A DNA stretch of 34,317 bases from Nitrospinae bacterium RIFCSPLOWO2_12_FULL_45_22. GTDB taxonomy: Bacteria; 2-12-FULL-45-22. The stretch spans positions 1 through 34,317 of the forward strand of contig MHDQ01000031.1 in NCBI GenBank assembly GCA_001803565.1, in the 5' to 3' direction. The notes under the pieces are model-generated. The model saw only the letters and a program-made list of their open reading frames with translations, did not search any database and was not told where the DNA came from. This document shows, piece after piece, positions 79 to 33,507 of this stretch (positions are counted from its first letter, which is position 1; each line of letters opens with the position of its first letter). The translations under genes and the position numbers were made by a program.

Positions 79-1383
79 TTATTTAGTCACTAACTTTTGA
101 TAGAGTTCCAAATATTTGTCTGATATCTGATCCAGAGAATATTTTTCTATAGCCGTTATCCGGGAATTTTTACCAATCCTTTCTGCCAGCTCTTTATCCT
201 CGGTCAACAATAATATGGATTCTATAATTTGTTGAGGGTCTTTATATCGGATCAAAAGGCCATTTTCTAAATGTTCCAAGGCATCTTTAGCTCCCCCCAC
301 AGTAGTAGCAATTATTGGTAGCCCTGTAGCCATAGCTTCTAAAAATGCGTTAGACATTCCTTCAGACTGTGATGGGAGGATAAAGATATCACTGGCATGT
401 AAGTAGGGCGAAACATCTTTGATTTCTCCCGTAAATATTACACTCTCCTTTAATCCATTATCTTCTACCATTCTTTTAAGATAAGCAGCCTGGTTATCCT
501 CACGACCTATTAATACTAATAATAGATCGGGCTTTATCTTTATCAATTCTTTCCAGGCTTCTAATAGGGTATCGAGACCTCTTTTATGTCTCAAGGAACC
601 AATAAAACAGACCATCTCTTTTATGGGTAGGGACAGTTGTCTTTTGAATTCGTTCATCTTTTGTCTATCAGCTTGAGGGAATCTATTTAAATCTATTCCG
701 TTGGAGATGGATTTCAACTTGTCAGCCGGGAAGCCCAGTTCTAAGAGTTTTTCTCTGATTTCGCTATTTATACAGATGAAAATATCAACGGAATTTCTAA
801 GCATTTTTAGATAGAGTTTATGGAGAAAATATCTTCTAAGAACCTCAAAACAAAAGGAATCTGTAAGTTTCATAATAACCTTTTTCTTAAATCTCTTAGC
901 CATCCAGACCGTTACTATGGAAAAAGGCCTCGCCATAATATGACAATGAACAATATCAATATCCCGGCCTCTAAATAGGAAGAAGAAACTGATTAGAACA
1001 GTGAGGACTAAAAATTGACAACATTCCTGGATACAAAGATATAGCTGATAAAGTTTATAATACAGCGGCTTTTTCTGAGAAGATCCATTATTAATATGAA
1101 AGTTATCAAAAAGGGATGAGTAGGCATATTCAGATAGTTTAAATTTCTGCCGAAAAAATTTGCTGAAAGGTAATTTTATGAATTCTAAAATCCTGAATTT
1201 GCGGTAAACTGGTATACCATCAATATACTCAAACCCTCGTAAGCCTTTCCAACGTCGAGTAATCACACAAACATTTATCCCTTTAGTTTTAATCTTTTGG
1301 CTGAGCTGGTGGGCTTGTCTCTCAGCCCCACCAATCAGGGGATGGAAGAATTCTATAACCATAGCTACCCTGACCTTCTTCAC
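79..1383 (-). CDS. Glycosyltransferase family 4 (GT-B fold)
   Basis: N-terminal 'FHPLIGGAERQ', 'ISNGID', 'FIGSLRHKRGLDTL' and GT4 signature 'DIFILPSQSEGMSNAFLEAMATGLPII' (E-x7-E). The ORF track runs to 1428, overlapping the upstream gene; the GTG at 1383 follows an AGGGGG RBS-like run and is the more likely start. Confidence 0.93.
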   Translation of the reverse strand: MKKVRVAMVIEFFHPLIGGAERQAHQLSQKIKTKGINVCVITRRWKGLRGFEYIDGIPVYRKFRILEFIKLPFSKFFRQKFKLSEYAYSSLFDNFHINNGSSQKKPLYYKLYQLYLCIQECCQFLVLTVLISFFFLFRGRDIDIVHCHIMARPFSIVTVWMAKRFKKKVIMKLTDSFCFEVLRRYFLHKLYLKMLRNSVDIFICINSEIREKLLELGFPADKLKSISNGIDLNRFPQADRQKMNEFKRQLSLPIKEMVCFIGSLRHKRGLDTLLEAWKELIKIKPDLLLVLIGREDNQAAYLKRMVEDNGLKESVIFTGEIKDVSPYLHASDIFILPSQSEGMSNAFLEAMATGLPIIATTVGGAKDALEHLENGLLIRYKDPQQIIESILLLTEDKELAERIGKNSRITAIEKYSLDQISDKYLELYQKLVTK

Positions 1384-1399
1384 TACAGCTTCAACCCCC

Positions 1400-2674
1400 T
1401 TATTCTTTGCGAGCAACAATGATAGCACTACTGGATAGATTTCTTAACCATGTTCGTGAGAAACTATTTTTTAGCTTCAGAAATTGATTGATCCGCTTGG
1501 GTAGAATAGTTACACCTATCTGTTCCTCGATTTTAAATCCGGTCCTTTCTAGTTCTTGGGTAATAGAGAATAAATTTAAAGGTCTTAAAGGCCCTTCATT
1601 GGTTATATATGAATCTTTCTCAAGTAAGGTATTTTTAACCAGATAGTTAATGCCCGAGGAGCTAAAAAAGTTCCAGAGACTTAATATCAACCTACCATTA
1701 TTTTTTAGTACCCTATGTATTTCATGTAGCATTTTTTGGGGATAATGAATTAAATTTAGTTTTTTAAAACAGGTTACAACATCAAAGTAATTGTCTGTAT
1801 ATAAGATTTCGCTCAGTGTCCCAAGCTGAAAATTAATTTTTACCTTCTGCAATCCTAAATAATCTTTTCTCTCCTCCAAAAAATAATAAATATCTTCAGA
1901 AACATCATGAATATATACTTCAGATAAGGCTTTTCTCTTCAGAATCTCAAGAATATGATTTCCCGAAAAGCTGAGAATGTCTAGTAACACACTATTTACC
2001 TGGATATATTTTAGAGATATCTCAATTTCCTTATAAAACTCTGCTTCGGCAGATAGATTCTCAAAAAATTCTTCAGAAGGAGAAGTTGCTCTAATACCCT
2101 TACTCCTATAGTCCAATATTGCTTCTGGGTTCCATAAGTGGAAAGAAGGAAATCTTTTTTCCTTTTTTTTTGGGTAAGAATTGAAATGAATGATCTCATT
2201 TAAAGATCGGCGCTGAGGAGGAACAGGCTGTTTTTTGGGATAACCTAAAGCCACGGCGCTAACAATAAGAAAACTTTCAGGGACATTTAGGATCTTATGC
2301 AATATCCTTCGTTCACCACACGCAGCTATCCAAACACTGCCAAGTCCTTCCTCGTAGGCCACAAGAAGCATATTCTGGATAGCCGCGGCCGCACTCTGGA
2401 TATTGGCAAAATATTCTTTGTTAATATCTTTAGGATACAGCACAAAAATCAGGAGGGGTGCGTTTTGCAAAAAAGAAACGGCCTTAGCCTCTGTTACAAT
2501 CCTTTCCTTAATCCTTTTATCCGTGACCACGATAAATTCCCACAGTTGTTTATTGCAAGCAGAAGGCGCCCACTGGGCGGCATCAATTACCCTCAAAACC
2601 TTCTCCGTCTCTACCTCAACTTTTTCCTGAAAAGTCCTTATACTACGTCGAGATTTAATAGTATCCGTTATCAT
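1400..2674 (-). CDS. Nitroreductase-family domain fused to a class I SAM-methyltransferase-like domain
   Basis: N-half has nitroreductase motifs 'SRRSIRTF', 'APSACNKQLWEF', 'AAIQNMLLVAYEEGLGSVW', 'LGYP'. C-half has 'FDVVTC', 'EIHRVLKNNGRLIL', 'GFKIE' and ends 'IIVARK', all typical of Methyltransf_11-like domains. Confidence 0.88.
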   Translation of the reverse strand: MITDTIKSRRSIRTFQEKVEVETEKVLRVIDAAQWAPSACNKQLWEFIVVTDKRIKERIVTEAKAVSFLQNAPLLIFVLYPKDINKEYFANIQSAAAAIQNMLLVAYEEGLGSVWIAACGERRILHKILNVPESFLIVSAVALGYPKKQPVPPQRRSLNEIIHFNSYPKKKEKRFPSFHLWNPEAILDYRSKGIRATSPSEEFFENLSAEAEFYKEIEISLKYIQVNSVLLDILSFSGNHILEILKRKALSEVYIHDVSEDIYYFLEERKDYLGLQKVKINFQLGTLSEILYTDNYFDVVTCFKKLNLIHYPQKMLHEIHRVLKNNGRLILSLWNFFSSSGINYLVKNTLLEKDSYITNEGPLRPLNLFSITQELERTGFKIEEQIGVTILPKRINQFLKLKNSFSRTWLRNLSSSAIIVARKE

Positions 2675-2677: not shown

Positions 2678-4039
2678 TTACCTGTCTCTTAACAGATTCA
2701 TAAATACGGGATCAGCATATATCCTTCTTTCTTCTAAAAATAGTAAAATCAATTTAAGAAACAGGCTGCAATACCTGGATTCAATGATATTTTCTGTAAC
2801 CTCACCCGTGTAAATATTTACCCGGTTTACATATCCACGAGCTGTATGATGATATTTGATTTGGCCATTAAAAATCTTTATCGCAGCCTCTTTATAAATC
2901 TCTTTGCCCGTTAGTTCATATAATTTCATCAGACTAATGGCAAAATCTGTTTCATCATCAAAATAGCTCTCCTCTGGTGTTTCGGTTGTAGGAAGCAACC
3001 CGGTCTCCTTTGATTGCCTGGACAGATAAAACTCAGCAATCCTTTCAGCAGTCTTTATATACCTTCCATCGCCGGTAGACCAGGTATAATCACAGCAAAA
3101 ATCTACAACAGCATAAGACTTAGAAGTTAGCGGCCCCCGAACAAACCGATCAGGGCTTTCAATTATTGTCCACTGATAAACCCCTCCATTTTCATCAATA
3201 AAATATTTGGTCACTCCATCAAACCAGTTTATCAAGGCATGGTTGAGTGGGGGTTCATGAGAAAGACTAAATAAGGCCAAAACCGCAGCCGCCATGCAAT
3301 AATTATCTTTAGTAAGATAGGCTGTCCTATGCGGATTCTTATTCCCTGACCAGTTTTTGGGTATTAGTTTGCTGGCAAAGATCTGGCTAGGAAAAAGCCC
3401 GGTTTCCCGGAAAAATTCTGAATCTAACCAAGGGTTTAATAATTGATTGGCCTTATCTAGATATTTCCTATGACCCGTTAGCCGATAAAGATCAATCAAC
3501 TGCTCAATAAATATCCCATTGGTGGGTTTAGCCACGGGGAGTTTATATTTTACTCTGGGGTAATAAACACAAGCTAGGTTATTTTTGGTAAAAAACAATG
3601 CATAGATCTTATCTATCATAAAATCAATAAAATCTAATAATCCTTGATCCCTTTTAATCTCATAACATTCAATTAAGCCTAATAAAAGGTCAGAGTATTC
3701 GAAGCTCAGAGTGGAGTATCCCAGGATGAGGCGCCTTAAGCGATGCTTTAGAGTAACCCCAGGCACCTCCCCCAATTCATAAAGGATGATATTCCCTTTT
3801 TCAAAAAAATCCTGCGCCAAATTAATGTGCCTTTCCACATAATCACCCTTACCACACCAGAGAAAAAAGGGGAGATAATCACCTAAGTCTGTCAAGATGT
3901 TCTGCGAAGAAAGGGGTTTACCGGTTAGGGCATCGATTTTAAAGAAAGGGAAACCCTCAGTGCTTGAATAGTCATGCTCAAACCAATTAATTATCTCATC
4001 TCTGCATTGAACCAGTAAGGGCTTATCTATTCCATCCAT
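2678..4039 (-). CDS. Uncharacterised six-hairpin (alpha/alpha)6-barrel protein (AGE-epimerase / glycosidase-like superfamily)
   Basis: Recurrent helix-hairpin motif: 'LYRLTGHRKYLDKA', 'YTWSTGDGRYIKTA', 'LYELTGKEIYKEAA'. No signal peptide or TM segment evident. Exact family not assignable by eye. Confidence 0.65.
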   Translation of the reverse strand: MDGIDKPLLVQCRDEIINWFEHDYSSTEGFPFFKIDALTGKPLSSQNILTDLGDYLPFFLWCGKGDYVERHINLAQDFFEKGNIILYELGEVPGVTLKHRLRRLILGYSTLSFEYSDLLLGLIECYEIKRDQGLLDFIDFMIDKIYALFFTKNNLACVYYPRVKYKLPVAKPTNGIFIEQLIDLYRLTGHRKYLDKANQLLNPWLDSEFFRETGLFPSQIFASKLIPKNWSGNKNPHRTAYLTKDNYCMAAAVLALFSLSHEPPLNHALINWFDGVTKYFIDENGGVYQWTIIESPDRFVRGPLTSKSYAVVDFCCDYTWSTGDGRYIKTAERIAEFYLSRQSKETGLLPTTETPEESYFDDETDFAISLMKLYELTGKEIYKEAAIKIFNGQIKYHHTARGYVNRVNIYTGEVTENIIESRYCSLFLKLILLFLEERRIYADPVFMNLLRDR

Positions 4040-4042: not shown

Positions 4043-5605
4043 TTAGGCATTTGTACTTAAAGATTTAGAGAAAGAAAGCAGTCTTTTTTTTACAAAGTTA
4101 GATATAGTATTTTTGAATATCCTCCGAAGGAATTTAGAATGAATTATTCTAGTGAGTAACACTATAAAGATTAATGATAAATAAAACCTCGCTAATTTAC
4201 TCTTTCTTTTCTGAACTAAAAAATCTATAAAATTAGTAGGTATAATGCCTATTATATTGTCTACAGCATAACCACGCATACAATAAATCAAGGTATTTAA
4301 ATATAGGTTATGCCTTTTTAAGAATAAGTGCCTGAGGTCATCATAATAATCTAGATTGGAACCTGAATCCTTTATCCCTTGAATTATCTTATCTTTTAAG
4401 GCGCGATTATATAGTTCTGTGCCCGGGAAAAAAACCAGATTAAATATCTCCAAAAAAAAGGGCTTAGGTATTTTTCTAATCAATTGGATAGTCTCTATTA
4501 GATCGTTATCGGTTTCATAAGGATTGGATATTATGAATTGATAGAAAGGTAAATCCATTTCACCATGGTATTTATTTAATATGGACGTTGCTTTTATTAC
4601 CACCTCAGTAGACTGCAAGCGTTTATATACATTTCTATTGAAAGATTCACTGCCGGTTTGTATACCCATAATGATTCTATTTAATTTGGCCTTTAATAAT
4701 AATTCGAGCTTATCTTCCTGAACATCTCCTGGATGAACGTTACACTGGAAGGGCATGTCAATTTTATCTCTATATTCCTCAACGAACATTTCCAATTCTT
4801 CCATATCTCTTAAAAAGAATGAATCATCGCTTATCCACAACTGACGTGCGAACGGGAATTTATCTTTTAATTCTATTATCTCTTTTAGCACCAGGCTCAG
4901 GTTTCTTTTTCTAATGATCTTACCTTCATTTTTATACAAATCATTTAAAAACCGGTTAGCACAAAAAGCACAACTATAGGGGCAGCCTCGTGCAGTAATA
5001 ATTAATATCGAACCAGTATATATTTGATCAGGATTATTTCTAAAATACTCTTTTCCCTCGAAAAATCTTTCGTTTTTAAGAATAATTTGGGTATCCAGGT
5101 CATAATCAGCAAAGGGATAATTATCTAAATTCCCTGTTAAAGGTCGAAGGCTATTTCTAATTACTTTCCCGTTGGTCCTGAACCAAAAATTCTGGGTATC
5201 TAAATAATCCTTGGAGCTACTCATCTTTTCCACAAGTTCTAAAACAGCTTCTTCTCCTTCACCAAGGCACACCATATCAGCATATTTTAAGCAATCTTCA
5301 GGACAGATAGTCGCATGCACTCCTCCCCAGATTATAGGTTTAGCAATATATTGTTTTATATATTTGATAATCTGGATCCCGCGTTGATAGGAAAATGCCA
5401 TAGAAGATATACCTATTAGATCTGAATCTTTAACCAAAGAAAACAAATCTTTGAGGACGCTCTTAGGGTAATTCTTAAAATTTGTTTCCTCGGTAGGCAT
5501 AAAAACCAGTTGCGTACTATGGCCTTTTGATTTCAGGTAAGAAGAAATCGATCTCATGCCATGACTAATGATGGTATTATCGATAGAGATTAATGTTATT
5601 TTCAT
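4043..5605 (-). CDS. Cobalamin-binding radical SAM protein
   Basis: B12-binding domain ('IGISSM', 'WGGVHAT', 'GEGE'), CxxxCxxC 'RGCPYSCAFC', 'DDSF', 'GIQTGS', 'FPGTELY'. The track start at 5632 lies inside an inverted repeat, so ATG 5605 (MKITLI) is preferred. Confidence 0.92.
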   Translation of the reverse strand: MKITLISIDNTIISHGMRSISSYLKSKGHSTQLVFMPTEETNFKNYPKSVLKDLFSLVKDSDLIGISSMAFSYQRGIQIIKYIKQYIAKPIIWGGVHATICPEDCLKYADMVCLGEGEEAVLELVEKMSSSKDYLDTQNFWFRTNGKVIRNSLRPLTGNLDNYPFADYDLDTQIILKNERFFEGKEYFRNNPDQIYTGSILIITARGCPYSCAFCANRFLNDLYKNEGKIIRKRNLSLVLKEIIELKDKFPFARQLWISDDSFFLRDMEELEMFVEEYRDKIDMPFQCNVHPGDVQEDKLELLLKAKLNRIIMGIQTGSESFNRNVYKRLQSTEVVIKATSILNKYHGEMDLPFYQFIISNPYETDNDLIETIQLIRKIPKPFFLEIFNLVFFPGTELYNRALKDKIIQGIKDSGSNLDYYDDLRHLFLKRHNLYLNTLIYCMRGYAVDNIIGIIPTNFIDFLVQKRKSKLARFYLSLIFIVLLTRIIHSKFLRRIFKNTISNFVKKRLLSFSKSLSTNA

Positions 5606-5625
5606 CCTAGTTCCCCGAATATCTT

Positions 5626-5792
5626 TAACCATTCACCGCAGAGCACGCAGAGAAAACATAGAAAAATTACTCTTGAAACTTATGTACTAATTGTCTGATA
5701 CCATCCTTGGGCACTGTGACATTGAAGTTGATTAATAAGCCCACATTATGTCCCATCTCAGCGTTTTCTGCGCTCTTCGCGTTGAACGGTTA
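5626..5792. repeat. Imperfect ~35-bp inverted repeat pair flanking the GxxExxY remnant
   Basis: Left arm TAACCATTCACCGCAGAGCACGCAGAGAAAACATAG (5626-5661). Reverse complement of right arm (5757-5792) is TAACCGTTCAACGCGAAGAGCGCAGAAAACGCTGAG. CGCAGAG-like sub-repeats are present. Confidence 0.8.
5667..5756 (-). pseudogene. Remnant of a GxxExxY-family (PD-(D/E)XK nuclease-like) gene, C-terminal 29 aa only
   Basis: Hand translation MGHNVGLLINFNVTVPKDGIRQLVHKFQE* matches the characteristic GxxExxY C-terminus GLLINFNV..LKDGI.R.V and is bracketed by inverted repeats. Confidence 0.8.
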
Positions 5793-5804: not shown

Positions 5805-7307
5805 TCAAAATCGGAAAATAGGGATCCCGATCATTTTATTAAAAATATCCCGATCTCTTCGCTCAAAAGTCTTATGGAGATAGCTAACGGAAAAATAACT
5901 TAAAATCCCTACCAAAATAACCAGGATTAAGCTGTATACATCTACAATATATTGCCTGGCGAAGAGGAGAACCATCACCATAATACCACTGTTTATAGCC
6001 ATTTTGAGGAAAGTACCCCAGGGAAATTTTATATCGATATATCTTTTAGTCAGTATAAATTGCAAGACGGCCTTAAAGACCAATGAAGACCCGGTAGCAA
6101 AAGCCACACCCGCAATCCCAAAGTATCTGACTAAAATTATATCCATTATCAGATTATATAAGATGAAGACCCTGCTATATAGCCCGATTTGGGGTTTCTC
6201 CAAAATTTGCCAGATGAGGCCAACAGAAAAGGCAATGGCATTAATCCCATAGACTATCATGAACATAATAAAAATTGGTAAAGTTTCTCTATACTTAGGT
6301 ACTATATAGGTTATCATTTCACTACCGAGGAATACTACTCCTGCAGTCAAAGGGAATAGAAAAAAGGCTATAAATTTATTTAATAATTGGAACATATAAC
6401 ATAATTCTGCCTGGTCATTATTCTGGGTGTATCTTCTGATAAAAATGGGAGTTATTACTGAGTCGGCGACCTTTGCCGGAGTCCAATTAATAATGCGAAA
6501 GGACATTAGGGCAGCAAAAGAATAAAGCCCCACCGCCTTGGGACCCAAAAAATTACTTATTATATAAATATCAATAGGTATCTCATAGCCCATATAGCTT
6601 AGTTCATTAAAATAGCTTAACAAACCATATTTGAAGACTCTTTGGATAGAATCTCCTTTTTTTGACTGACTGGGTAATAGAAACACATAGGCGCGAATGA
6701 CTAATAAATATAGAACAAATGTAATCAAATTAACCAAAAGGGCCGCCCATATCAACCCTTTAAGCCCATAACCCTGTCGCAGCGCAAAGTAATATAGCCC
6801 TCCCTGGAGTATAGAGTATATAAACAACATGAGGTTTTCATATCCTTGAAGAAGAAGAGAGTTTAAAATATATCTTAAGCTTCTAATCTGGATGGCAAGG
6901 ATAATAACAAAGAGAAAAATAGAGAAGTAATCTATTATTGGAGGGGCCTTTAAAAAAAGGGCAATAGGGCTAATACAAAACCAGATCAAAACTACGCAGA
7001 TGGTGAAAGCTACAGTTTGACATAATAGGCCATAAAAAATAAGTTTTTTGAGGATAGTATAATCTTTATTTTGATAATACTCCGGAACATACCGTTCTAT
7101 AACAGAGGGTATTCCAAAAGAGACGAACATGGAAATTAATGTTAAAGCAGCAAATAACAAATTATAAATCCCATACTCCTCAACCACCAATCTATTTAAA
7201 ATATAAATGGCAATGAAAAGAGAAACTATGGCAGAGATACTTCTCCCCACATAATTAAAAATAGTATTTCTAAATCCGTGATTGTATAAATCTTCCTGTG
7301 CAAACAC
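5805..7307 (-). CDS. wzx: Oligosaccharide flippase (Wzx / MOP superfamily)
   Basis: 500 aa with roughly 12-14 hydrophobic segments; 'NTIFNYVGR', 'EEYGIY', 'FGIPSVIERYV', 'FLGPKAVGLYS', 'FGIAGVAFAT'. Confidence 0.9.
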   Translation of the reverse strand: MFAQEDLYNHGFRNTIFNYVGRSISAIVSLFIAIYILNRLVVEEYGIYNLLFAALTLISMFVSFGIPSVIERYVPEYYQNKDYTILKKLIFYGLLCQTVAFTICVVLIWFCISPIALFLKAPPIIDYFSIFLFVIILAIQIRSLRYILNSLLLQGYENLMLFIYSILQGGLYYFALRQGYGLKGLIWAALLVNLITFVLYLLVIRAYVFLLPSQSKKGDSIQRVFKYGLLSYFNELSYMGYEIPIDIYIISNFLGPKAVGLYSFAALMSFRIINWTPAKVADSVITPIFIRRYTQNNDQAELCYMFQLLNKFIAFFLFPLTAGVVFLGSEMITYIVPKYRETLPIFIMFMIVYGINAIAFSVGLIWQILEKPQIGLYSRVFILYNLIMDIILVRYFGIAGVAFATGSSLVFKAVLQFILTKRYIDIKFPWGTFLKMAINSGIMVMVLLFARQYIVDVYSLILVILVGILSYFSVSYLHKTFERRDRDIFNKMIGIPIFRF

Positions 7308-10493: not shown

Positions 10494-10542
10494 AATAAGA
10501 AATGTTCCTGGTATTTTTCGAGGGTCTAAGTGACAGGACGCT

Positions 10543-14532: not shown

Positions 14533-14541
14533 GACTCCAGT

Positions 14542-19530: not shown

Positions 19531-19555
19531 TGTCTCTTTCCCTTAATTATCCTTA

Positions 19556-21442: not shown

Positions 21443-21470
21443 TGCTTAACCTATCCTTTTCAACTGTATC

Positions 21471-23620: not shown

Positions 23621-23622
23621 CG

Positions 23623-24783
23623 CTAAGAATCCCCTTCCTCCTTTAACCTTTGATAAAGCTGCATTGTTTCCTCTACTAGCTTCTCCCGGTTGAACTGCCT
23701 GGCAGATTGAAAATTATTTCGAGAAATAGATTCCCTTAATGCTTTATCGCTCAGGAGACGGATCACTGAACTGGCTATAGCCTCACTGGACCGGGGGGCG
23801 ATTAGAAGGCCATTCTTTTCATCTTCAATCAGGTCTCTAAGTCCTCCCACATGGGTAGCAATGATGGGAAGACCGTAACTCATAGCCTCTATGACTGTTA
23901 CTCCCAGCCCTTCGATCAGGGAAGGCAATATAAATAAATCTACCTCCCGATACAAGGAATGTACTCTCTCCGGAGGCAGCATATTATAGAAAATAAAATT
24001 GTTTCTTAACTTTAACCGGTCACATTCATATAGCATTCTGTCCTGAATCTGACCCACAACGATAAACTTTATATTCTTATATTCCTGGATAATCTGAGGA
24101 GCCGCCTTGATTAGATAATAGATGCCCTTGCGCTGCAGGTTACGGCCCACCAACAATAAGCGGTAAGCACCATCTTCCCTTTCCCGGATAGGAGTTTTAT
24201 TCTCTGGAAAGTGCGGTATCGCTTTGTATATTTTGTGAATTTTCCTTGGGGGCAGCTTATATGCCTTGACAATCGCCTCTCCAGTTGCTTGGCTATTGGT
24301 AATCAAGGCATCATAGTAATGGAGCATCCACCTCTCGAAAGTTTTAGTAAAATGATTATAAAGATACCTTCTCCACCAATCGTTCCTGTACTCTTTAAAG
24401 AAATAGAAGGGATTAAAGCTACTAACAGCAAAATAATAATCGTTTACGCTTCCCACCGTGGGGATCGCTAATCTCTTCGCCCCTAGGGCCCCCTGCCGGG
24501 CATCAAGGCTATGGAAGATATCAAAGCCGTAACTCTCCTGCAGGTTAAGTATCCTTCTAAACAACCTCAGATTGAACGATGCCCAATGCGAGTGAGTAGG
24601 GTCCCATTTGAAGGGAGGGAGATAGATATACTCAAATCTTTCGACCTTAAACATTGGTTTCTCGTTGCAGACCAAGACAACTTCATATCCTCTCTCTATC
24701 AACCCCTCCACCAGATTATTGGTGTACAGGCCTATACCGCTAAAACGGCTAAAATACTGGTCGGAAACCAGACATATTCTCAT
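23623..24783 (-). CDS. Glycosyltransferase family 4
   Basis: 'SGIGLY', 'VGRNLQRKG', 'DLFILPSLIEGLGVTVIEAMSYGLPIIATHVGG'. Confidence 0.94.
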   Translation of the reverse strand: MRICLVSDQYFSRFSGIGLYTNNLVEGLIERGYEVVLVCNEKPMFKVERFEYIYLPPFKWDPTHSHWASFNLRLFRRILNLQESYGFDIFHSLDARQGALGAKRLAIPTVGSVNDYYFAVSSFNPFYFFKEYRNDWWRRYLYNHFTKTFERWMLHYYDALITNSQATGEAIVKAYKLPPRKIHKIYKAIPHFPENKTPIREREDGAYRLLLVGRNLQRKGIYYLIKAAPQIIQEYKNIKFIVVGQIQDRMLYECDRLKLRNNFIFYNMLPPERVHSLYREVDLFILPSLIEGLGVTVIEAMSYGLPIIATHVGGLRDLIEDEKNGLLIAPRSSEAIASSVIRLLSDKALRESISRNNFQSARQFNREKLVEETMQLYQRLKEEGDS

Positions 24784-26453: not shown

Positions 26454-26483
26454 AATATTGTCCTATAGGGAGATTGCCTATTG

Positions 26484-27206
26484 CTACTTGTTTATCTCTT
26501 TTTTCTCACAAATTAATAGCAACGACATTCCTATAAATGGACTAAACAACCTATCTGACAAAAGCAAAAGGGAAGAAAATTTATTAAAAAATTCCAATAG
26601 GCAGTCTGACAAAATTTCGCGTCTGAGAATTTTCCCATTTACAAACCAGCCGAATATACCAAAGAAGTTACAAAATAACCGCCTTTTGACTGTGAAACCC
26701 GCCGTTTCTATCTTATGCTTCAATTCGCGACAATGGTATCTTCGCCAGTGTCCAACGGATTGATCCAAGGTTCCATATAGCCAATGTAAAGCAGGAACTA
26801 ACAATATCAACCTGCCTGGATTATTTAGCAGAGCATACATGTTCTTCAGTGCCTTTGTATCGTCCTCGATATGTTCTAATACATTGAGACATACTATAGT
26901 ATCAAAGCCGAAGCTAGTTAAATAATTTATGTCATCTTTAGCTATATCTAACCTGATGGCTTTAAAGTTTCTATTATCGGTGAATTTTGACTCTACCTCC
27001 TTTATATAATCTTCTACAATATCAACTGACACCAGTAATTCAGAAGAATCAATTAGGAATGAAGTATAGATACCAATCCCACAGCCTATCTCTAACACCC
27101 TAGATCCAATATCGTCCTTAATCTTATCCCAAAACCACTGATTATGTATGGTAAGCTTATCCAATTTCCTTAAAGTCTCTTGCCCTATCCTTAACGCTTT
27201 ATCCAC
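26484..27206 (-). CDS. Class I SAM-dependent methyltransferase
   Basis: Motif I 'VLEIGCGIG', 'FDTIVCLNVLEHIEDD', 'PGRLILLVPA', 'GHWRRY'. Confidence 0.93.
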   Translation of the reverse strand: MDKALRIGQETLRKLDKLTIHNQWFWDKIKDDIGSRVLEIGCGIGIYTSFLIDSSELLVSVDIVEDYIKEVESKFTDNRNFKAIRLDIAKDDINYLTSFGFDTIVCLNVLEHIEDDTKALKNMYALLNNPGRLILLVPALHWLYGTLDQSVGHWRRYHCRELKHKIETAGFTVKRRLFCNFFGIFGWFVNGKILRREILSDCLLEFFNKFSSLLLLSDRLFSPFIGMSLLLICEKKEINK

Positions 27207-28585
27207 GGATTACTCCAAATCCTCTTAAAAGCTGAAATGTTCATTTTCACTTCTGTCCAAGAAAAAAACCTTAATAGTCTTCTCCATAAATATGGCAGCC
27301 GCAGGTAGAATCTCCGGTAAGCATCTTGATAATATCTCAATACCATTTCGCTGCTCACCGTTGGTAGATTCATAACTGGATGGGACAAATCGTACTTTTC
27401 CCAATCGAGAGTATTCAAATATCCGCACTCCTTTGCCCAATTGAACATCTTAGTGCCTGGATATGGCGTGGTAATATTAAATACCACAACGTCCGGACTT
27501 GTTTTGATAGCAAATTGAATAGTCTTCTCCATGGTTTCCAAGGTCTCGCCGGGGTTTCCCAACATGAAAGTGGCACGAACATCCATTCCTAGTTTTTTGG
27601 TAAGGGCAATTGCCTCTTCTGCTCCGTTCAAGTTTATCCGCTTATTAATATTTTTCAGTATTCCCTCGTCTGCAGATTCAATCCCAAACATGACCTGATG
27701 ACAACCGGAATCCTTCATTATCCTTAGCATATCCTTATCTACATAATCGACACGAGCAAAACAGGACCAGGTTATATCAATATTTTCAGAGAGAAGGAGG
27801 GTACAAAATTCCTTTACCTCGTCCTTAAAAACGGTGAAGGTATCATCGTAAAACTGGATCTCCTTTATTCCATAGTTATCTTTTAGCAGTCTTATTTCAT
27901 CAACTAACCTACGCGGTGAAATTCTCCGTATTTTTTCCCCTAGTACTCCTCCGTAGCAAAACGTACATCTACCGGGGCATCCCCTGGTGGCAACCATGCT
28001 GATTGCTGGTAGTCTTTTGTACGCACCGAGAGTCGGATAGTATCTATGCATAGGCAATAAGTGGTACGCAGGATATGGTAAGCTATCGAGGTTTTCGATA
28101 AGTGCCCTTGCTTCATTATGAATATAGACTCCATTCGATTTATAAGAGAGTCCGGGGATCTCTCGTATATCATCACCCCTTGCTAATTCCCAGAAAGTAT
28201 ATTCTCCCTCTCCCCGGATAACAAAATCTACACTCTCATTACTTAAGACCTCATCGGGCAAGACCGTCGGATGGACTCCTCCCAGTACTATCTTGGTCTG
28301 GGGTAGAAATCTCTTACACAACCTTGCTATTTCCATGGTATTATTTATTATGCTGGTGGTAGCTGTTATTCCAATAAACCATGGTTGTTTATCATTAATA
28401 TGTTGATAAATTTTATCCAATCCGATTCTTTCAGCATGAACATCCAAAATCTCTACCTTGAAAAAGCGCTCCTCCAAAAAAGAAGCTATCTGAGCTAATC
28501 CAAGCGGTGGCATGCAACTGGCAATATCCTTCCAGATGTTCCCTTCTCTTTTTACCCACGGCGGATTAATCAGTAGAATTGACAT
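27191..28585 (-). CDS. Cobalamin-binding radical SAM protein
   Basis: 'LLINPP', 'PPLGLAQIA', 'GITATT', 'GGVHPT', 'GEGE', CxxxCxxC 'RGCPGRCTFC', 'DDTF', 'GIESA', 'TPYPGT'. Confidence 0.94.
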   Translation of the reverse strand: MSILLINPPWVKREGNIWKDIASCMPPLGLAQIASFLEERFFKVEILDVHAERIGLDKIYQHINDKQPWFIGITATTSIINNTMEIARLCKRFLPQTKIVLGGVHPTVLPDEVLSNESVDFVIRGEGEYTFWELARGDDIREIPGLSYKSNGVYIHNEARALIENLDSLPYPAYHLLPMHRYYPTLGAYKRLPAISMVATRGCPGRCTFCYGGVLGEKIRRISPRRLVDEIRLLKDNYGIKEIQFYDDTFTVFKDEVKEFCTLLLSENIDITWSCFARVDYVDKDMLRIMKDSGCHQVMFGIESADEGILKNINKRINLNGAEEAIALTKKLGMDVRATFMLGNPGETLETMEKTIQFAIKTSPDVVVFNITTPYPGTKMFNWAKECGYLNTLDWEKYDLSHPVMNLPTVSSEMVLRYYQDAYRRFYLRLPYLWRRLLRFFSWTEVKMNISAFKRIWSNPWIKR

Positions 28586-28638
28586 TAATTCTCCTTACTG
28601 AATTCAACTTATCGTATAGAAAAATCGCGCTTTACTTA

Positions 28639-30309
28639 CTAAGGTAACTTCACCACATCTGCAAGATCGTAGATCTTTATTAATCCCATCCCCTGATCTT
28701 GGAGCATGCTATTAAACATTTCCTGACCAAGAGTTTCAGGACTGTAGGAGTTCTCATAGAGGAAAGGTTTATATAATCCAACGCTGTTTGAGACTTCATG
28801 TACAGGTTTACATTCTTTCTCCACCCGGTATAACCAAGCATAACGAGTATGCTTCAGTAAATGATATTTTTGCCAGTCTACTAACAAATATTTATAGCCT
28901 CCATTAGTAAATAATCGCTTTATATTAGATATAGCGAGACCCTCAATAAGGGGAGAAAAGCTGCCTTTATAGTAAACATCTGAAACATAGGGCAGAGTGC
29001 TCAAGTGCTTGTCTCCTTCGTGGCTACCCATATACTCAAAGGCTGCTTTATATCCTGGTTTTAGATTTGTCAGTTCCCATGAATTATAGCTTCCCGTTAC
29101 GAGAACAATTAAGGTAAAAACGGTAATCATCTGGGGTAAACTCACCCTTCCTACACGGGCAGCCATAAAACCTACCAAGGCCAATCCTCCCCGGGCAGAC
29201 ACCAGGGGCAAGGTCGATAGAGATAACAATAACAACCGGGGAATATGATTATGGTGAGGAGACCACCAGATGAGAGGCAGTAGGAATTGAGTAAAGATAA
29301 TCAGATCTGCCAATGAGATACGGTGGTCGGACAACCATCTTCTCAATATAGATACCACTCCCCCCAGCAAGAGCAGAGTTACAACATAACCTTCCAGAAT
29401 TAGCAAGGTTCGGGGGAGAATCAAAGCATCTGCATCCACGCGGCGGGACCATCCTCCCTGCTGCCTAAAGCGAAACAGCAGTTGCTCAAAATAAGTGAAA
29501 TGTGGGTAATTAGTGAGAACCCTCAGGTACAAGTAGACAATTTCTGCTATCAGCAAGGGAATTAGCGTGGAAATAACTAATACCCCTATTCTTTTAACAT
29601 GCTTCTCCAGAGGGAGACGGTCAGGGGATAGAAATAGATGGACCTCGTATAACAATAATATTACTGGTAGAATAGAGAGTGAGGTGTGGCAGCCAAAGGC
29701 GATACCAGCACTCAATCCCGTTAGCCAGAGGAACGATATACTATTCTCTTCCAGGCTGCGACTTCGGTAATAGAAATAGGTGGACAGCATAACAAAAAAA
29801 ATGGCTGGACTTAATTCAAAACCCCGGCCCGAATAGATAATCTGATATGCAGAAACAGCGACTACTGCTGAGGAAATCAAACCGGTATGGGCGTCATAAA
29901 GAGTTTTTCCCAGGACAAAAGCCATGAGAATTGTCAGAACGCCAAATGTGGCGGCCATTACATTTCCCGCATCTTCGAGGGGAAGACGAAAAGCAAGATA
30001 AAAAAAAGCGGTGAAAAAAGTAAGATAAGACTTGGCATTGGTGGGGACAAACTCACCTAGATTTTTCGCTATTATAAACTCTCTGAACGAATCTGTAGGG
30101 CTCTCACCACCTAAATCCTCCTGGATAGCTATGAAACGAGGCTTTTCCTTTATCCACCTCAAAGATTCTATCAAGAACCTGGTCTCACTTAACCGCCAAG
30201 CGGTATCAGCCATAAATGGGCCTAGATCCAGAATATGGTTAAAACGAAGAACCCCACCGAGCGACAAAATCAGGAAAAAGATTACAAGAGTAACTTTATT
30301 GTTCTTCAT
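28639..30309 (-). CDS. GT-C membrane glycosyltransferase (ArnT/PMT_2-like)
   Basis: TM1 ending 'LRF', loop 'FMADT', 'FGVLTI..LGKTLY', 'LTGLSAGIAFGCH', 'IPRLLL'; polytopic N-terminal part plus a soluble C-terminal domain. Confidence 0.8.
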   Translation of the reverse strand: MKNNKVTLVIFFLILSLGGVLRFNHILDLGPFMADTAWRLSETRFLIESLRWIKEKPRFIAIQEDLGGESPTDSFREFIIAKNLGEFVPTNAKSYLTFFTAFFYLAFRLPLEDAGNVMAATFGVLTILMAFVLGKTLYDAHTGLISSAVVAVSAYQIIYSGRGFELSPAIFFVMLSTYFYYRSRSLEENSISFLWLTGLSAGIAFGCHTSLSILPVILLLYEVHLFLSPDRLPLEKHVKRIGVLVISTLIPLLIAEIVYLYLRVLTNYPHFTYFEQLLFRFRQQGGWSRRVDADALILPRTLLILEGYVVTLLLLGGVVSILRRWLSDHRISLADLIIFTQFLLPLIWWSPHHNHIPRLLLLSLSTLPLVSARGGLALVGFMAARVGRVSLPQMITVFTLIVLVTGSYNSWELTNLKPGYKAAFEYMGSHEGDKHLSTLPYVSDVYYKGSFSPLIEGLAISNIKRLFTNGGYKYLLVDWQKYHLLKHTRYAWLYRVEKECKPVHEVSNSVGLYKPFLYENSYSPETLGQEMFNSMLQDQGMGLIKIYDLADVVKLP

Positions 30310-31016
30310 ATCTTCCCTGGCGTCTCCAAATCCTTAAACTTATTTCCAATAATTATCTCTCGCCAGAGAATTTTTAAGAAGATCAGTCCTGTGGGGAGCG
30401 ATTTGGCGGTGCTTTCTCCCCCTATTCGTTTCCCTTCTTGAGTGGGAATCTCGGCTACCTTCAAACCTAATTTCATGGCTCTTATGGACATCTGGTACTC
30501 AATAACAAACCCGGGAGCATCTGGCTTAATCCTCCTAAAAGCATCTTTGGTTATAGCCCGATACCCATTTATGCTATCTGTGATTTTCCCTCTCCAGACA
30601 AAATTGGCAATAGCAGTAAAAGCACGGTTCGCCCAAGCCCGCCAGGGAAAAAGCCGGTCATCCTCCTCATTCCTCGCACCCTTCATGAACCGTGAGGCAA
30701 TGGCCATATCATACCCCTCATCAAGAAGGCCGAGGAGCCGAGGAATATCATTAGGGTTTTCATTTCCATCCGGGCTAAAGAAGACCAAATTCTCGCCCTG
30801 AGCTTCCCGGAAGGCGATCCGGAATGCCTCGCCCCGGCCCTTTATATCCTGCCGTATCACCTTAATTCCTCTTCTCTCAAAAAACTCGATCGTTCCATCA
30901 GTCGAGCCTCCATCAACAACAAAATACTCGTCCACCTCATGAAAAGGGATTTTATCGAACAGAACTCTGACCCCCTCGATCTCATTAAAAGTTAAAATCA
31001 CCAAAGTCTTTTTCAT
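30306..31016 (-). CDS. GT2, polyprenol-phosphate glycosyltransferase (DPM1-like)
   Basis: 236 aa; 'TFNE', 'VDGGSTDGT', 'GRGEA', 'FFSPDGNENP' (DxD position reads S-P-D), 'IASRF', 'ITDSINGYRA'. Confidence 0.9.
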   Translation of the reverse strand: MKKTLVILTFNEIEGVRVLFDKIPFHEVDEYFVVDGGSTDGTIEFFERRGIKVIRQDIKGRGEAFRIAFREAQGENLVFFSPDGNENPNDIPRLLGLLDEGYDMAIASRFMKGARNEEDDRLFPWRAWANRAFTAIANFVWRGKITDSINGYRAITKDAFRRIKPDAPGFVIEYQMSIRAMKLGLKVAEIPTQEGKRIGGESTAKSLPTGLIFLKILWREIIIGNKFKDLETPGKI

Positions 31017-31993: not shown

Positions 31994-32049
31994 TCGCTCC
32001 CTCTCCAACTTCGGATTTGTAAGTTAAATTTTTGGCTCTTATTGTTTAC

Positions 32050-33507
32050 TTAAAATCTGTTTTTTAAAAAATAATATCTTGATCTAATATACATTGAGAT
32101 AATCTCTTTTGTTCTAAAACATATATTTCTTAAAGGGGATGAAAAAAATATGGCCATGAATCTGAAAAGTTTATTGGGTTTCAAATGCTTAAGGATAAAA
32201 ATAATTCGTGGCCATTTAATAGCTAACGGGGCAAAATTACTTACCCAATAAATAAATTCTGCTTCCGGATGATTAAGCACTGTCGACTCTTTATAGCTTT
32301 TTTCTCCGTTATTAATTTTATTAGTTATCTTATCATCAATATAACCTAAATCTTTTGAAATAATGGCGAGTTTAGTATTTGGAAAAGGATAGAAGGTACT
32401 AAATAAAGCGTTATTGGGTTTAATTTTTGTATTTAAATTTATAGTATCCCACATTTGAGCCTTATTTTCTGAAGGCAACCCCACCATATTAAGTGTGGTA
32501 AAAGGAATTTTATACTTATGAAGGAATTTAGATATGTATTCAATCTGTGAATTATTTGTCTTTCTATTTAAAATGTTCTTTCTGATTTCTTCGCTTCCGG
32601 ATTCGATTCCGATATCAACATATTTACACCCAGATTCTGAAAGGAGTTTTATCACATCTTCATTGACCATATCAAAATGAATCAAACATTTATAAGGTAA
32701 ATCTATTTTTTTCTTATACATATCAGCAAATCTCTCTAACCAACGGTAATTTAAAGTAAAAATATCATCATAAAAAAAGATTTCTTTAATAGAATATTTT
32801 TTCCTAAAATATAATATCTCCTCGATCACATTATCCACAGATCGTCTTCTTACATATTTCCCTTTATTGAAATATAATTCTTTATATGAAGAATTATAAC
32901 AATAGGTGCAAGAAAAGGGGCAACCCCTGCCTGTCATTATATACAATCTATCTTTAAAGCATCCGTATCTATAAAATAATTCCTTGTCAGGAAATGGGAG
33001 ATTATCCAAATCCTCATTTAAAGGCCTGACTGGATTTTTAATGATGGTATTATCTTTTTTAAACCATATATTTTCAATATTATAGTTAACTTCTTTATTT
33101 TCCAATGAATTAGCAAGTTCAACAATAGCGTCTTCTCCTTCTCCTATACATATCATATCTATAAAATCCTCTTTTAAAACTAATTCAGGGACATTTGTGG
33201 CGTGAATACCCCCAAATATTATGGGAGCGTTGATATGCTTTCTTAGTTCTGAGGCAATATTTTTCTCCCAGCTATATATATTTGTCAAGGCAGTAAAAGC
33301 GATTAAATCAGGATTATATTTTTTTGCCTGTCTAATGATTTGACCATCGATACCACCAATTTTCTCCAACAACGGCATTTTAAATTCAATATCCCCGGCT
33401 CCGGGATTGAATAATAATTCAGTTTGATGACTTGATTTTTTTAATACCGAAGATAAATACTCTATTCCTAACCATTCAGCATTCCTGAAAACAAATAGTA
33501 TTTTCAT
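32050..33507 (-). CDS. Cobalamin-binding radical SAM protein
   Basis: 'LGIEYLSS', 'FGGIHAT', 'GEGE', CxxxCxxC 'RGCPFSCTYC', 'DDIF', 'GIESGS', 'MVGLPSE', 'PFPNT'. Strongly AT-rich. Confidence 0.93.
   Translation of the reverse strand: MKILFVFRNAEWLGIEYLSSVLKKSSHQTELLFNPGAGDIEFKMPLLEKIGGIDGQIIRQAKKYNPDLIAFTALTNIYSWEKNIASELRKHINAPIIFGGIHATNVPELVLKEDFIDMICIGEGEDAIVELANSLENKEVNYNIENIWFKKDNTIIKNPVRPLNEDLDNLPFPDKELFYRYGCFKDRLYIMTGRGCPFSCTYCYNSSYKELYFNKGKYVRRRSVDNVIEEILYFRKKYSIKEIFFYDDIFTLNYRWLERFADMYKKKIDLPYKCLIHFDMVNEDVIKLLSESGCKYVDIGIESGSEEIRKNILNRKTNNSQIEYISKFLHKYKIPFTTLNMVGLPSENKAQMWDTINLNTKIKPNNALFSTFYPFPNTKLAIISKDLGYIDDKITNKINNGEKSYKESTVLNHPEAEFIYWVSNFAPLAIKWPRIIFILKHLKPNKLFRFMAIFFSSPLRNICFRTKEIISMYIRSRYYFLKNRF

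Follow-up and report, generated by a model that had tools for sequence, protein, structure and literature searches.

A Nitrospinae surface-glycan locus with five radical SAM enzymes, and a proposed radical tailoring step in envelope glycosylation

Contig MHDQ01000031.1 of Nitrospinae bacterium RIFCSPLOWO2_12_FULL_45_22 (assembly GCA_001803565.1), whose 34,317 nucleotides form the whole stretch analyzed here (the window), carries an array of 24 genes in which Wzx/Wzy-type surface-glycan assembly is mixed with four cobalamin (B12)-binding radical S-adenosylmethionine (SAM) enzymes (rSAM#1 to rSAM#4), a SPASM/twitch-type radical SAM enzyme and further tailoring genes. We found that relatives of the B12-binding enzymes recur beside GT2 and GT-C glycosyltransferase (GT) genes and beside Wzx and Wzy_C genes, both elsewhere in this genome and in other lineages, and that one protein fuses a radical SAM enzyme to glycosyltransferase domains; the link between radical SAM and glycan genes is not chance. 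From this gene content, we lean towards a Wzx/Wzy_C surface glycan that would be decorated by GT-C enzymes drawing on lipid-phosphate sugars tailored by the radical SAM enzymes. An earlier note, made from the letters of the window, had proposed a cell-envelope glycan locus in which the radical SAM enzymes belong to the glycan pathway, and this assignment is upheld by the recurrence described below.

Within the genome, about 36 open reading frames (ORFs) on 27 contigs match the B12-binding enzymes of the window, 27 of them at E <1e-30 (strong paralogues); a separate search counted 37 matches. Outside the window's own contig (C31), GT2/GT4-like genes make up 13 of the 114 genes within 5 kb of a strong paralogue versus 34 of 3057 elsewhere (odds ratio 11.4, Fisher p 4e-9), and such a gene lies that close to 11 of the 23 strong paralogues; detection used phmmer with the window's own proteins and undercounts. 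Likewise outside C31, three of ten PMT_2, four of six Wzy_C and two of five Bac_transf (priming transferase) matches lie within 3.9 kb of a strong paralogue. The zones within 5 kb of strong paralogues hold just 4.6% of bases. Pfam annotation of 52 neighbor genes showed that seven contigs (C36, C59, C84, C132, C154, C162 and C11) repeat the mix of B12-binding and SPASM-type radical SAM enzymes, Wzx, Wzy_C, GT2, GT4 and GT-C. C36, for example, encodes a SPASM-type enzyme, a B12-binding enzyme, a second SPASM-type enzyme, a GT4, another B12-binding enzyme, Wzy_C, Wzx and a sulfatase-family protein; C59, a GT2, a B12-binding enzyme 50% identical to rSAM#3, a 1243-aa Wzy_C protein and a GT4; C84, Wzx and a B12-binding enzyme between two GT2s; C162, a GT4, a TMEM260-like GT-C with TPR repeats, a SPASM-type enzyme and three B12-binding enzymes; and C11, two GT2s and a DUF2304 protein between two B12-binding enzymes. 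Exceptions are C57, where two radical SAM genes stand beside Band_7 genes, and several contigs without a detected glycosyltransferase. G001, which belongs to the same order, has a one-to-one partner for each of two of the three tandem enzymes of C162, so the paralogues are old.

The strongest single item for the link, as we read the domains, is on C154 (G000:C154:6163-11685, where G000 is the host genome; locus L023): one unbroken chain of 1840 aa joins two GT2 domains, a radical SAM part that aligns to residues 3-401 of rSAM#3 and a C-terminal Glyco_trans_1_2 domain, and appears to be a giant multi-enzyme glycan synthase. Downstream of it lie a 1261-aa triple-GT2 protein and then a GT2-TPR protein. 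A similar pattern is described for another phylum, Omnitrophota, in the part available of a preprint on giant proteins, where one module combines radical SAM with GT1 domains (10.64898/2026.06.07.730766).

Other lineages repeat the linkage. A query alignment of rSAM#3, its C59 paralogue and its relative at locus L004 yielded 34 loci in a metagenome scan; L036 is the genome's own C59 and was excluded, and the counts below cover the 28 other loci at >=42% identity to rSAM#3. The immediate neighbor is a GT2 gene in 16 of the 28 (L038, L040, L043, L045, L047-L055, L058, L059 and L062; 14 of the 16 Pfam-checked), or in 13 of 19 once near-duplicate gene strings are collapsed and two loci cut or broken at the radical SAM gene are dropped. 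This GT2 is usually 227-246 aa long and is fused to a methyltransferase in L047 and L048; a methyltransferase and a PMT_2 GT-C then follow in L038, L043, L045, L047 and L059, and a PMT_2 or YfhO GT-C lies within three genes in those five loci and in L004. L053 encodes a fusion of B12-binding radical SAM enzyme and methyltransferase. The rSAM#3 relatives in L038, L047, L048 and L053 have a methyltransferase either next in line or as a fused part. At L004 the order is YfhO-like protein, GT2, radical SAM enzyme, PMT_2, unknown protein, PMT_2 and methyltransferase. L038 is a five-gene island (radical SAM enzyme, GT2, B12-binding radical SAM enzyme, methyltransferase, PMT_2) flanked by housekeeping genes (LepA, signal peptidase, NfeD, Band_7) and a TetR-RND efflux operon; this locus holds no other glycan gene and no nucleotide-sugar (NDP-sugar) or Wzx/Wzy gene, and its gene content appears decisive for the idea of a self-contained unit. 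Frequent company of the relatives are NDP-sugar enzymes (a GDP-mannose-dehydratase-type short-chain dehydrogenase/reductase (SDR), NTP_transferase, or GFO with hexapeptide acyltransferase and DegT) and small SMR or EamA membrane proteins (for example, in L050 and L051). In G003 and G001, radical SAM clusters adjoin a LPG_synthase_TM protein, a family also present in the window. The earlier note had named beforehand conserved linkage of homologues with glycan genes as its test, and such linkage was found.

Three of these loci hold further features. The YfhO-like/GT2/B12-radical SAM/PMT_2 module of L004 (L004:9-4263) stands directly after type IV pilus genes (two T2SSE, T2SSF and a pilin with the N_methyl motif), which hints at pilin glycosylation. 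Immediately upstream of the rSAM#3 relative, L043 (8945-9994) and L044 (1094-2110) carry DUF4430 and DUF6580 genes; DUF4430 is presumably related to cobalamin-binding proteins, and the two genes may serve B12 supply. L059 (4700-6682) encodes a 660-aa SDR with two Epimerase-domain stretches and a LAGLIDADG_3 match between them, an insert that may be an intein or homing endonuclease.

A quick tree of 67 B12-binding enzymes (without L036, L039, L040, L049, L055, and ORFs outside 400-650 aa or at E >1e-30) puts the four window enzymes in four separate places. rSAM#3 falls in a clade of 23 rows (Shimodaira-Hasegawa-like approximate likelihood ratio test (SH-aLRT) 95), 12 of them directly GT2-adjacent by phmmer labels and a 13th, L048, by virtue of its GT2-methyltransferase fusion neighbor found with Pfam. 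rSAM#4 is sister (SH-aLRT 100) to an L047 enzyme that adjoins a GT2 and an SDR, and rSAM#2 is sister (SH-aLRT 97) to an L053 enzyme between two GT4 genes.

These observations suggest a pathway in which GT4 and GT2 enzymes would build a lipid-linked repeat unit, with a priming transferase supplied from outside the contig, after which Wzx would flip the unit and the Wzy_C protein would polymerize or ligate it. Alongside this, the small GT2, which resembles dolichyl-phosphate-mannose (DPM) synthase, would be fed by the SDR and load a sugar onto polyprenyl phosphate; rSAM#3, rSAM#4 and the adjacent methyltransferase would modify this lipid-phosphate sugar at the cytoplasmic side of the membrane; the MprF-type protein, as the probable flippase, would move the tailored sugar out; and three or four GT-C enzymes would attach it to polymer or protein. 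Other residues would be tailored by rSAM#1, rSAM#2, the SPASM-type enzyme with the GFO oxidoreductase, the two nitroreductase-methyltransferase fusions and the AsnB-type enzyme, whose likely role would be uronic acid amidation. Overall, the scheme would amount to three-component periplasmic glycosylation extended by radical tailoring. We propose the lipid-phosphate sugar donor as the object of tailoring because the most conserved partner is a small polyprenyl-phosphate-type GT2 together with GT-C enzymes; this substrate stage, the sequence of the steps, the acceptor and the type of reaction (C-methylation, or else a rearrangement or dehydration like those of HpnJ or AprD4) are what we infer from the gene content and its recurrence. 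ArnD, the HpnI/HpnK/HpnJ pathway and MoeK5 are precedents for altering such a donor. DprE1/E2 and the ORF13 epimerase likewise alter a lipid-linked donor before GT-C transfer, according to the part available of one study (PMC11127046).

A broader proposal is conceivable, though we are inclined to doubt it: that a widespread, uncharacterized clade of B12-binding radical SAM enzymes acts on polyprenyl-phosphate monosaccharides to give C-methylated, deoxygenated or ring-contracted (cyclitol-like, HpnJ-type) donors, which GT-C enzymes would place on envelope polysaccharides or proteins such as pilins. The clade would then be a fourth, radical component of three-component glycosylation, expanded in this genome to about 36 paralogues over most of its surface-glycan loci.

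Several points weigh against the pathway as drawn. Twelve of the 28 metagenome loci have no adjacent GT2: in L037, L039 and L063 the surroundings are SSB, S6, RNase-H-like and helicase genes and include no glycan gene, and L041, L042, L046, L056, L061 and L064 also have no GT2 next to the radical SAM gene. Relatives in G038 and G008 stand in non-glycan contexts, related genomes are not independent samples, and within the window itself a GT-C gene separates rSAM#3 from the small GT2. On the quick tree, GT2 adjacency clusters modestly: it takes 12 changes, whereas shuffled labels average 15.4, and 12 of 500 shuffles need 12 or fewer. A search of the genome for a GtrA-family flippase found none, and the window has no SMR-type flippase and no small membrane ORF, so the flippase step falls to the MprF-type protein alone. 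Pfam and NCBIfam found neither a priming transferase nor a chain-length regulator in the window; five Bac_transf and three Wzz matches are on other contigs, and because the contig ends at an insertion sequence (IS) element, these genes may lie beyond it. Finally, no radical SAM enzyme of the window reaches a curated NCBIfam family cut-off, which leaves their chemistry without a family assignment.

The enzymes themselves are well defined as domains. All five keep an intact CxxxCxxC motif and exceed the Pfam cut-offs (B12-binding 32.1 bits, Radical_SAM 29.5 bits, SPASM 21.5 bits), as the earlier note had read them. rSAM#1 to rSAM#4 score 52.9, 64.6, 93.6 and 57.8 bits for the B12-binding domain and 62-106 bits for Radical_SAM, with the motif at residues 217 (CPYSCAFC), 214 (CPYDCTFC), 203 and 196. 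Among NCBIfam profiles, HpnJ (TIGR03471, equivalog cut-off 577.6 bits) is the top scorer for rSAM#3 and rSAM#4 and nearly so for rSAM#2, at 265.8 bits for rSAM#3, 145.8 for rSAM#2, 121.5 for rSAM#4 and 85.3 for rSAM#1; BchE (TIGR02026, cut-off 481 bits) does best with rSAM#3 at 227.9 bits, and rSAM#1, a long branch in the tree, reaches at most 97 bits with any profile, far below cut-offs. In the PDB, AprD4 is the top match of rSAM#3 (5.7e-26), rSAM#2 (7.3e-21) and rSAM#4 (2e-14), at low identity and mainly over the radical SAM core, followed by 9ccb, which from its listing we take to be the methyl-coenzyme M reductase (MCR) glutamine C-methyltransferase, and then by TokK, OxsB, CysS and TsrM. 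The nearest characterized relatives thus appear to be a mix of methylases and non-methylating enzymes, and because HpnJ, BchE and AprD4 are non-methylating, rearrangement or dehydration seems as open as C-methylation. The C-methyl-branched sugars proposed in the earlier note would be one possible outcome. AprD4, moreover, does not bind cobalamin, according to the available part of a review (PMC12931638).

The fifth enzyme (SPASM 48.5 bits; CNLSCRMC at residue 58) reaches no NCBIfam equivalog and has SkfB (3e-9) and anSME (1.3e-6) as its best PDB matches; with about six Cys past residue 240 and a C-terminus seven residues after a CxxC, a one-cluster twitch-like form is possible. A role as sulfatase maturase was considered and rejected: sulfatase-family genes occur near SPASM-type enzymes in C36 and G023, but none occurs in the window. 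Those genes encode membrane proteins beside SPASM-type and B12-binding radical SAM enzymes in two glycan-type loci, C36 (L017:9267-11111) and G023:C9 (L073:6588-8270), and could be sulfatase-maturase pairs or phospho-substituent transferases.

The profile matches raise the possibility that the radical SAM enzymes are lipid or cofactor enzymes (of HpnJ, BchE or ladderane type) or peptide maturases that merely sit in a variable island beside glycan genes, and we regard this as highly improbable. Their best NCBIfam profiles do include HpnJ, BchE, ApyD (from ribosomally synthesized and post-translationally modified peptide (RiPP) pathways) and a 'lipid biosynthesis' B12-radical SAM family, the GC content is mosaic with an IS element at the edge, and some relatives stand in non-glycan contexts; however, every one of these profile scores is less than half of its curated cut-off, radical SAM paralogues are strongly enriched beside GT, GT-C and Wzy_C genes, the C154 fusion ties such an enzyme to glycosyl transfer, and the closely spaced genes of the array include no obvious candidate for a small precursor peptide. 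A hopanoid role in particular was rejected on the sub-threshold HpnJ scores and on the search for squalene-hopene cyclase (PF13243), which gave no match in the 85%-complete host genome and matched two of 14 control genomes. The comparison with non-glycan enzymes such as HpnJ and BchE, which the earlier note had named as a test of its reading, does not overturn it.

It is rather unlikely, in our estimate, that the locus makes the same glycan with the radical SAM enzymes acting instead on nucleotide-sugar precursors, on the undecaprenyl-diphosphate repeat unit or on the finished polymer. AprD4, the nearest solved relative of three of the four B12-binding enzymes, acts on a soluble aminoglycoside sugar, as GenK does on soluble sugar intermediates; NDP-sugar enzymes adjoin the radical SAM gene in many related loci (L046, L050, L058, L059, L062 and G003); and rSAM#1 and rSAM#2 adjoin Wzx and not the small GT2. 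The L038 island argues the other way, with GT2, GT-C, methyltransferase and two radical SAM enzymes and no NDP-sugar enzyme, as does the small GT2 as commonest immediate neighbor of the rSAM#3 clade (16 of 28 loci).

Another reading would have the GT2/radical SAM/GT-C module glycosylate a protein, a pilin or another envelope protein, with the Wzy_C protein as a PglL-type O-oligosaccharyltransferase. PMT_2 is the family of protein O-mannosyltransferases, Wzy_C domains also occur in O-oligosaccharyltransferases, and TfpW, a GT-C, arabinosylates Pseudomonas pilin; to these can be added the pilus genes before the L004 module and, beside three B12-binding enzymes on C162, the TMEM260-like GT-C, which is of protein-O-mannosyltransferase type. 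The window, however, holds no pilin or obvious acceptor gene, its Wzx, two GT4s and second GT2 fit a repeat-unit polysaccharide, and the pilus context appears in only one of 29 loci outside this genome, so that we hold a protein acceptor of this kind to be improbable.

The ORF list bears out the earlier note's count of 24 co-directional genes at 79-33507 (Table 1). All lie on the minus strand and are closely packed, with overlaps of 1-29 nt between eight neighboring pairs and gaps of at most 173 nt; the array is one large locus, probably in one to four operons. In order of transcription, it begins with rSAM#4, the SDR, the small GT2, GT-C 3, rSAM#3, the methyltransferase, GT-C 2 and a GT4, continues with GFO, the SPASM-type enzyme, AsnB, the LPG_synthase_TM protein, the Wzy_C protein, the 769-aa membrane protein and the 500-aa soluble protein, and ends with a GT2, fusion 2, GT-C 1, rSAM#2, Wzx, rSAM#1, the (alpha/alpha)6-barrel-like protein, fusion 1 and a GT4. 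The earlier note had not listed the LPG_synthase_TM protein, the GFO/IDH/MocA oxidoreductase, the SDR, the two GT4s or the two GT2s.

Table 1. Genes of the 24-gene array and the flanking insertion-sequence fragment, with the principal profile matches (TM, transmembrane segments)
Feature	Position	Strand	Evidence
GT4 glycosyltransferase, 449 aa	79..1428	-	Pfam Glycos_transf_1 5.7e-39, Glyco_transf_4; below all NCBIfam equivalog cut-offs
Nitroreductase::class-I methyltransferase fusion 1, 424 aa	1400..2674	-	Pfam Nitroreductase 1.3e-29, Methyltransf_11 4.9e-12
(alpha/alpha)6-barrel-like protein, 453 aa, soluble; fold as in epimerases or hydrolases	2678..4039	-	Weak Pfam GH47 5.9e-9, GH88, GH76
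B12-binding radical SAM enzyme #1, 529 aa, very divergent	4043..5632	-	Pfam B12-binding 4.1e-14, Radical_SAM 1e-16
Wzx-type flippase, 500 aa, ~13 TM	5805..7307	-	Pfam Polysacc_synt_3 9.2e-14, Polysacc_synt 1e-10
B12-binding radical SAM enzyme #2, 509 aa	7332..8861	-	Pfam B12-binding 9.5e-18, Radical_SAM 4e-22
GT-C glycosyltransferase 1, 562 aa, PMT_2	8883..10571	-	Pfam PMT_2 4.8e-10; ~8 TM
Nitroreductase::methyltransferase fusion 2, 456 aa	10543..11913	-	Pfam Nitroreductase 1.8e-29, Methyltransf_11 8.2e-8
GT2 glycosyltransferase, 334 aa	11904..12908	-	Pfam Glycos_transf_2 1.9e-25
Candidate heparinase II/III or ulvan-lyase-like toroid (a lead only), 500 aa, soluble	12910..14412	-	No Pfam or NCBIfam match
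Probable YfhO-like GT-C, 769 aa, ~9 TM	14542..16851	-	No Pfam match at cut-off; YfhO 16.9 bits
Wzy_C-domain membrane protein, 513 aa: polymerase, ligase or O-oligosaccharyltransferase	17018..18559	-	Pfam Wzy_C 2.3e-14
MprF-type flippase-like membrane protein, 311 aa	18595..19530	-	Pfam LPG_synthase_TM 1.4e-26; TIGR00374 74.6 bits, over 43.2 cut-off
AsnB-type glutamine amidotransferase, 628 aa	19556..21442	-	Pfam Asn_synthase 6.9e-102, GATase_7; TIGR01536 512 bits, over cut-off
Radical SAM enzyme with SPASM/twitch-type C-terminal domain, 371 aa	21471..22586	-	Pfam Radical_SAM 5.8e-21, SPASM 1.1e-12
GFO/IDH/MocA NAD(P) sugar oxidoreductase, 345 aa	22583..23620	-	Pfam GFO_IDH_MocA 1.4e-26
GT4 glycosyltransferase, 386 aa	23623..24783	-	Pfam Glycos_transf_1 1.2e-38
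GT-C glycosyltransferase 2, 556 aa, PMT_2/PMT	24783..26453	-	Pfam PMT_2 2.4e-16, PMT 3.6e-14
Class-I SAM methyltransferase, 240 aa	26484..27206	-	Pfam Methyltransf_12/23/11; 16-nt overlap with rSAM#3
B12-binding radical SAM enzyme #3, 464 aa, GT2-linked clade	27191..28585	-	Pfam B12-binding 9.7e-27, Radical_SAM 2.9e-30
GT-C glycosyltransferase 3, 556 aa, PMT_2 marginal	28639..30309	-	Pfam PMT_2 6.3e-6, 26.9 bits; genome search 30 bits; ~8 TM
Small soluble GT2 (GT2b), 236 aa, polyprenyl-phosphate glycosyltransferase-like	30306..31016	-	Pfam Glycos_transf_2 4.6e-19
SDR NDP-sugar epimerase/dehydratase/reductase, 331 aa	31013..32008	-	Pfam Epimerase 6.1e-63
B12-binding radical SAM enzyme #4, 485 aa, first gene of array	32050..33507	-	Pfam B12-binding 1.3e-15, Radical_SAM 1.3e-25
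IS1380-family transposase fragment; contig end, outside pathway, marks upstream boundary	33711..34316	+	NCBIfam transpos_IS1380 3.5e-13

The array is real DNA: four of four public DNA runs, labeled as soil or sediment metagenomes, have contigs over each of the 30 bins of 14000-33990, with two variant sites and no joints; one of the runs may be the source of this DNA. Upstream, summed contig depth about doubles over 33343-33990, and loose ends of other runs' contigs fall at 33529-33534, some 25 nt before the first gene. GC content across the window ranges from 31-47%, compared with 45.1% genome-wide. A transfer RNA scan of the window found none, and Rfam gave no match over the whole window and therefore no cobalamin riboswitch. 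A consensus scan of 14400-34317 was not informative (58 promoter-like sites versus 43.8 +/- 7.6 and 26 terminator-like sites versus 19 +/- 4.9). Just past the stop of the last gene of the array lies a short non-coding element (20-79) with an inverted repeat, AGGATGA...TCATCCT, inside it. It recurs at 90% identity on C128 (L002, G000:C128:18599-18660), and its 20-nt core, AAAAAGTGCAAGAGTTTAGT, is also found on C179 (L003, G000:C179:9790-9813); both contigs hold glycan genes (Wzy_C), and glycan loci of this genome may have the element in common as a terminator or a site of recombination.

Pfam also confirmed the Wzx/Wzy-type assembly genes of the earlier note. Both Wzx and Wzy_C are in the locus, the latter one of seven Wzy_C loci in the genome, and the Wzy_C domain cannot separate a polymerase from a ligase or O-oligosaccharyltransferase. 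The four GT-C enzymes of the earlier note became three that are verified as PMT_2 (cut-off 26.1 bits) and one, the 769-aa protein, that is a probable GT-C because, although below the YfhO cut-off of 28.5 bits, it can be aligned to the YfhO-family protein of L004 across some 650 residues (E 2e-14, 22% identity) and its L041 homologue matches YfhO at 2.6e-19. GT2b has AglJ as its best NCBIfam profile (102.6 versus 325 bits), then a dolichyl-phosphate hexose transferase and PpgS, all below cut-offs; its sole PDB match, dolichol-phosphate-mannose synthase 5mlz (3.2e-14), indicates family-level likeness only.

Among the other tailoring genes, Pfam likewise confirmed the amidotransferase, the methyltransferase and the two nitroreductase-methyltransferase fusions. 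The amidated and redox-modified sugars that the earlier note foresaw would follow from protein families only: AsnB for the former, nitroreductase and GFO for the latter. The closest AsnB subfamily is the XrtA/PEP-CTERM amidotransferase (645 versus 817 bits, under the cut-off), and the SDR is GDP-fucose-synthase-like (197 versus 500 bits in NCBIfam). Two soluble proteins that the earlier note had called alpha-barrel unknowns have fold assignments from the ESM Atlas or weak Pfam matches, to be taken as leads only: the 453-aa protein, with no TM helix, resembles AGE epimerase/GH47-like barrels (TM-score 0.64-0.73), and the 500-aa protein a heparinase II/III or ulvan lyase (feature score 0.97, structural TM-score 0.81). 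No relation between the two was detectable (best E 0.031).

The two fusions, 30% identical to each other, are the only copies in this genome. Across 40 other genomes, a single match spans both domains (G037, two small ORFs away from Wzx and a polysaccharide pyruvyl transferase), and the others are stand-alone nitroreductases of about 170 aa. A large protein search returned 84 relatives at E <=1e-10, about 63 with both domain types, all from metagenomes or metagenome-assembled genomes (MAGs) and a few named 'nitroreductase', 'nitroreductase family protein' or 'nitroreductase/SAM-dependent methyltransferase'; the family appears to be rare and unnamed. BluB is the best NCBIfam profile of fusion 1 (65 versus 150 bits) and the second-best of fusion 2 (59.8 bits), far below the cut-off. 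A role as cobalamin reactivators, by flavin reduction and SAM methylation, was considered, and no evidence for it was found.

The host, an uncultured bacterium of groundwater or soil represented by a MAG (3.67 Mb in 321 contigs, 85% complete, 1.3% contaminated), belongs to a deep, poorly sampled lineage, since only one of 40 relatives compared (G001) shares its order and the other 39 share only its domain. The presence of LpxC indicates that the cell bears lipopolysaccharide, and CbiB is also present. For oxygen, the signals are mixed: CdhC (G000:C157:15333-15773), a subunit of carbon monoxide dehydrogenase/acetyl-CoA synthase and a marker of the Wood-Ljungdahl pathway, stands against COX1 and COX2 of a heme-copper oxidase on one contig (G000:C278:11602-14855), so that the anaerobe of the earlier note is plausible, not established. 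The closest relative of rSAM#3 among named genome records, in a search that yielded two loci only, is 58% identical and comes from 'bacterium isolate UBA9089' (L004). UBA9089 is a groundwater phylum, according to the part available of one source (PMC11484514), to which the window's genome need not belong.

To our knowledge, the greater part of the very large B12-radical SAM family is without an assigned function, and its known sugar-modifying members all come from antibiotic pathways. If the clades described here do tailor lipid-linked envelope sugars, many orphan enzymes of uncultured subsurface bacteria would gain a function, and bacterial surface glycans and the tools of glycoengineering would both gain a new chemistry in the form of radical C-C bond formation or rearrangement. 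With only five genes (radical SAM enzyme, GT2, B12-radical SAM enzyme, methyltransferase, GT-C), the compact metagenome cassette makes the idea directly testable in a heterologous host, without culturing. Within the literature searched, which did not extend to subscription-journal papers and supplements, we found no description of B12-radical SAM enzymes in Wzx/Wzy or GT-C glycan systems, and the main text of a 2026 review of these enzymes does not contain the words polysaccharide, glycan, glycosyl or lipid (PMC12931638).

Several known systems resemble parts of the proposed pathway. With Wzx/Wzy O-antigen, capsule and exopolysaccharide loci, the window shares Wzx, Wzy_C, GT2 and GT4 enzymes, an SDR and an AsnB-type amidotransferase, and its genome shares LpxC; it differs in adding five radical SAM enzymes and two nitroreductase-methyltransferase fusions and in carrying no priming transferase or Wzz. 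Sugar-modifying radical SAM enzymes are known from natural products, namely GenK and GenD1 and, with the AsnB-type MoeF5 and MoeH5, MoeK5; the moenomycin cluster brings a B12-radical SAM enzyme, AsnB-type amidotransferases, an SDR and glycosyltransferases to bear on a lipid-phosphate-linked sugar, a combination of genes also seen in the window. AprD4 is the closest solved structure to rSAM#2, #3 and #4. The AprD4, GenK and MoeK5 pathways, however, make secreted antibiotics without Wzx, Wzy_C or GT-C, and AprD4 differs further in its lack of cobalamin.

In the HpnI/HpnK/HpnJ pathway, which turns hopanoid glucosamine into a cyclitol ether, HpnJ is a B12-binding radical SAM enzyme that acts after a GT2 on a lipid-linked amino sugar. 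The likeness extends to HpnJ as the top profile of rSAM#3 and rSAM#4 and to polysaccharide deacetylases beside relatives in L041 and L051, whereas the scores, the hopene cyclase search and the partner genes (GT-C, Wzx, Wzy_C) set the window apart. HpnJ is among the studied enzymes in the available part of the 2026 review (PMC12931638).

A further parallel is with three-component systems such as GtrA/GtrB/Gtr*, ArnC/ArnEF/ArnT, CsbB/GtcA/YfhO, the undecaprenyl-phosphate ribofuranose (undP-Ribf) system of Citrobacter youngae and mycobacterial decaprenylphosphoryl arabinose (DPA) with DprE1/E2, in which a GT2 loads polyprenyl phosphate, a flippase acts and a GT-C uses the lipid-linked donor outside the cytoplasm; the candidate counterparts in the window are the DPM-synthase-like GT2, three or four GT-C enzymes and the flippase-like protein. 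The GT2 of the window differs in its short soluble form, GtrA and SMR flippases were not found in the genome and the window, respectively, and the stage at which the sugar would be modified is our proposal. In some three-component systems, auxiliary enzymes alter the lipid-linked sugar before export, according to the available part of a study in which the word 'radical' does not appear (PMC11127046). The known auxiliary enzymes are epimerases or a deformylase, and none is a radical SAM enzyme. What would be new here, as far as comparative genomics can tell, is the joining of two known schemes, Wzx/Wzy assembly and three-component glycosylation, with radical tailoring.

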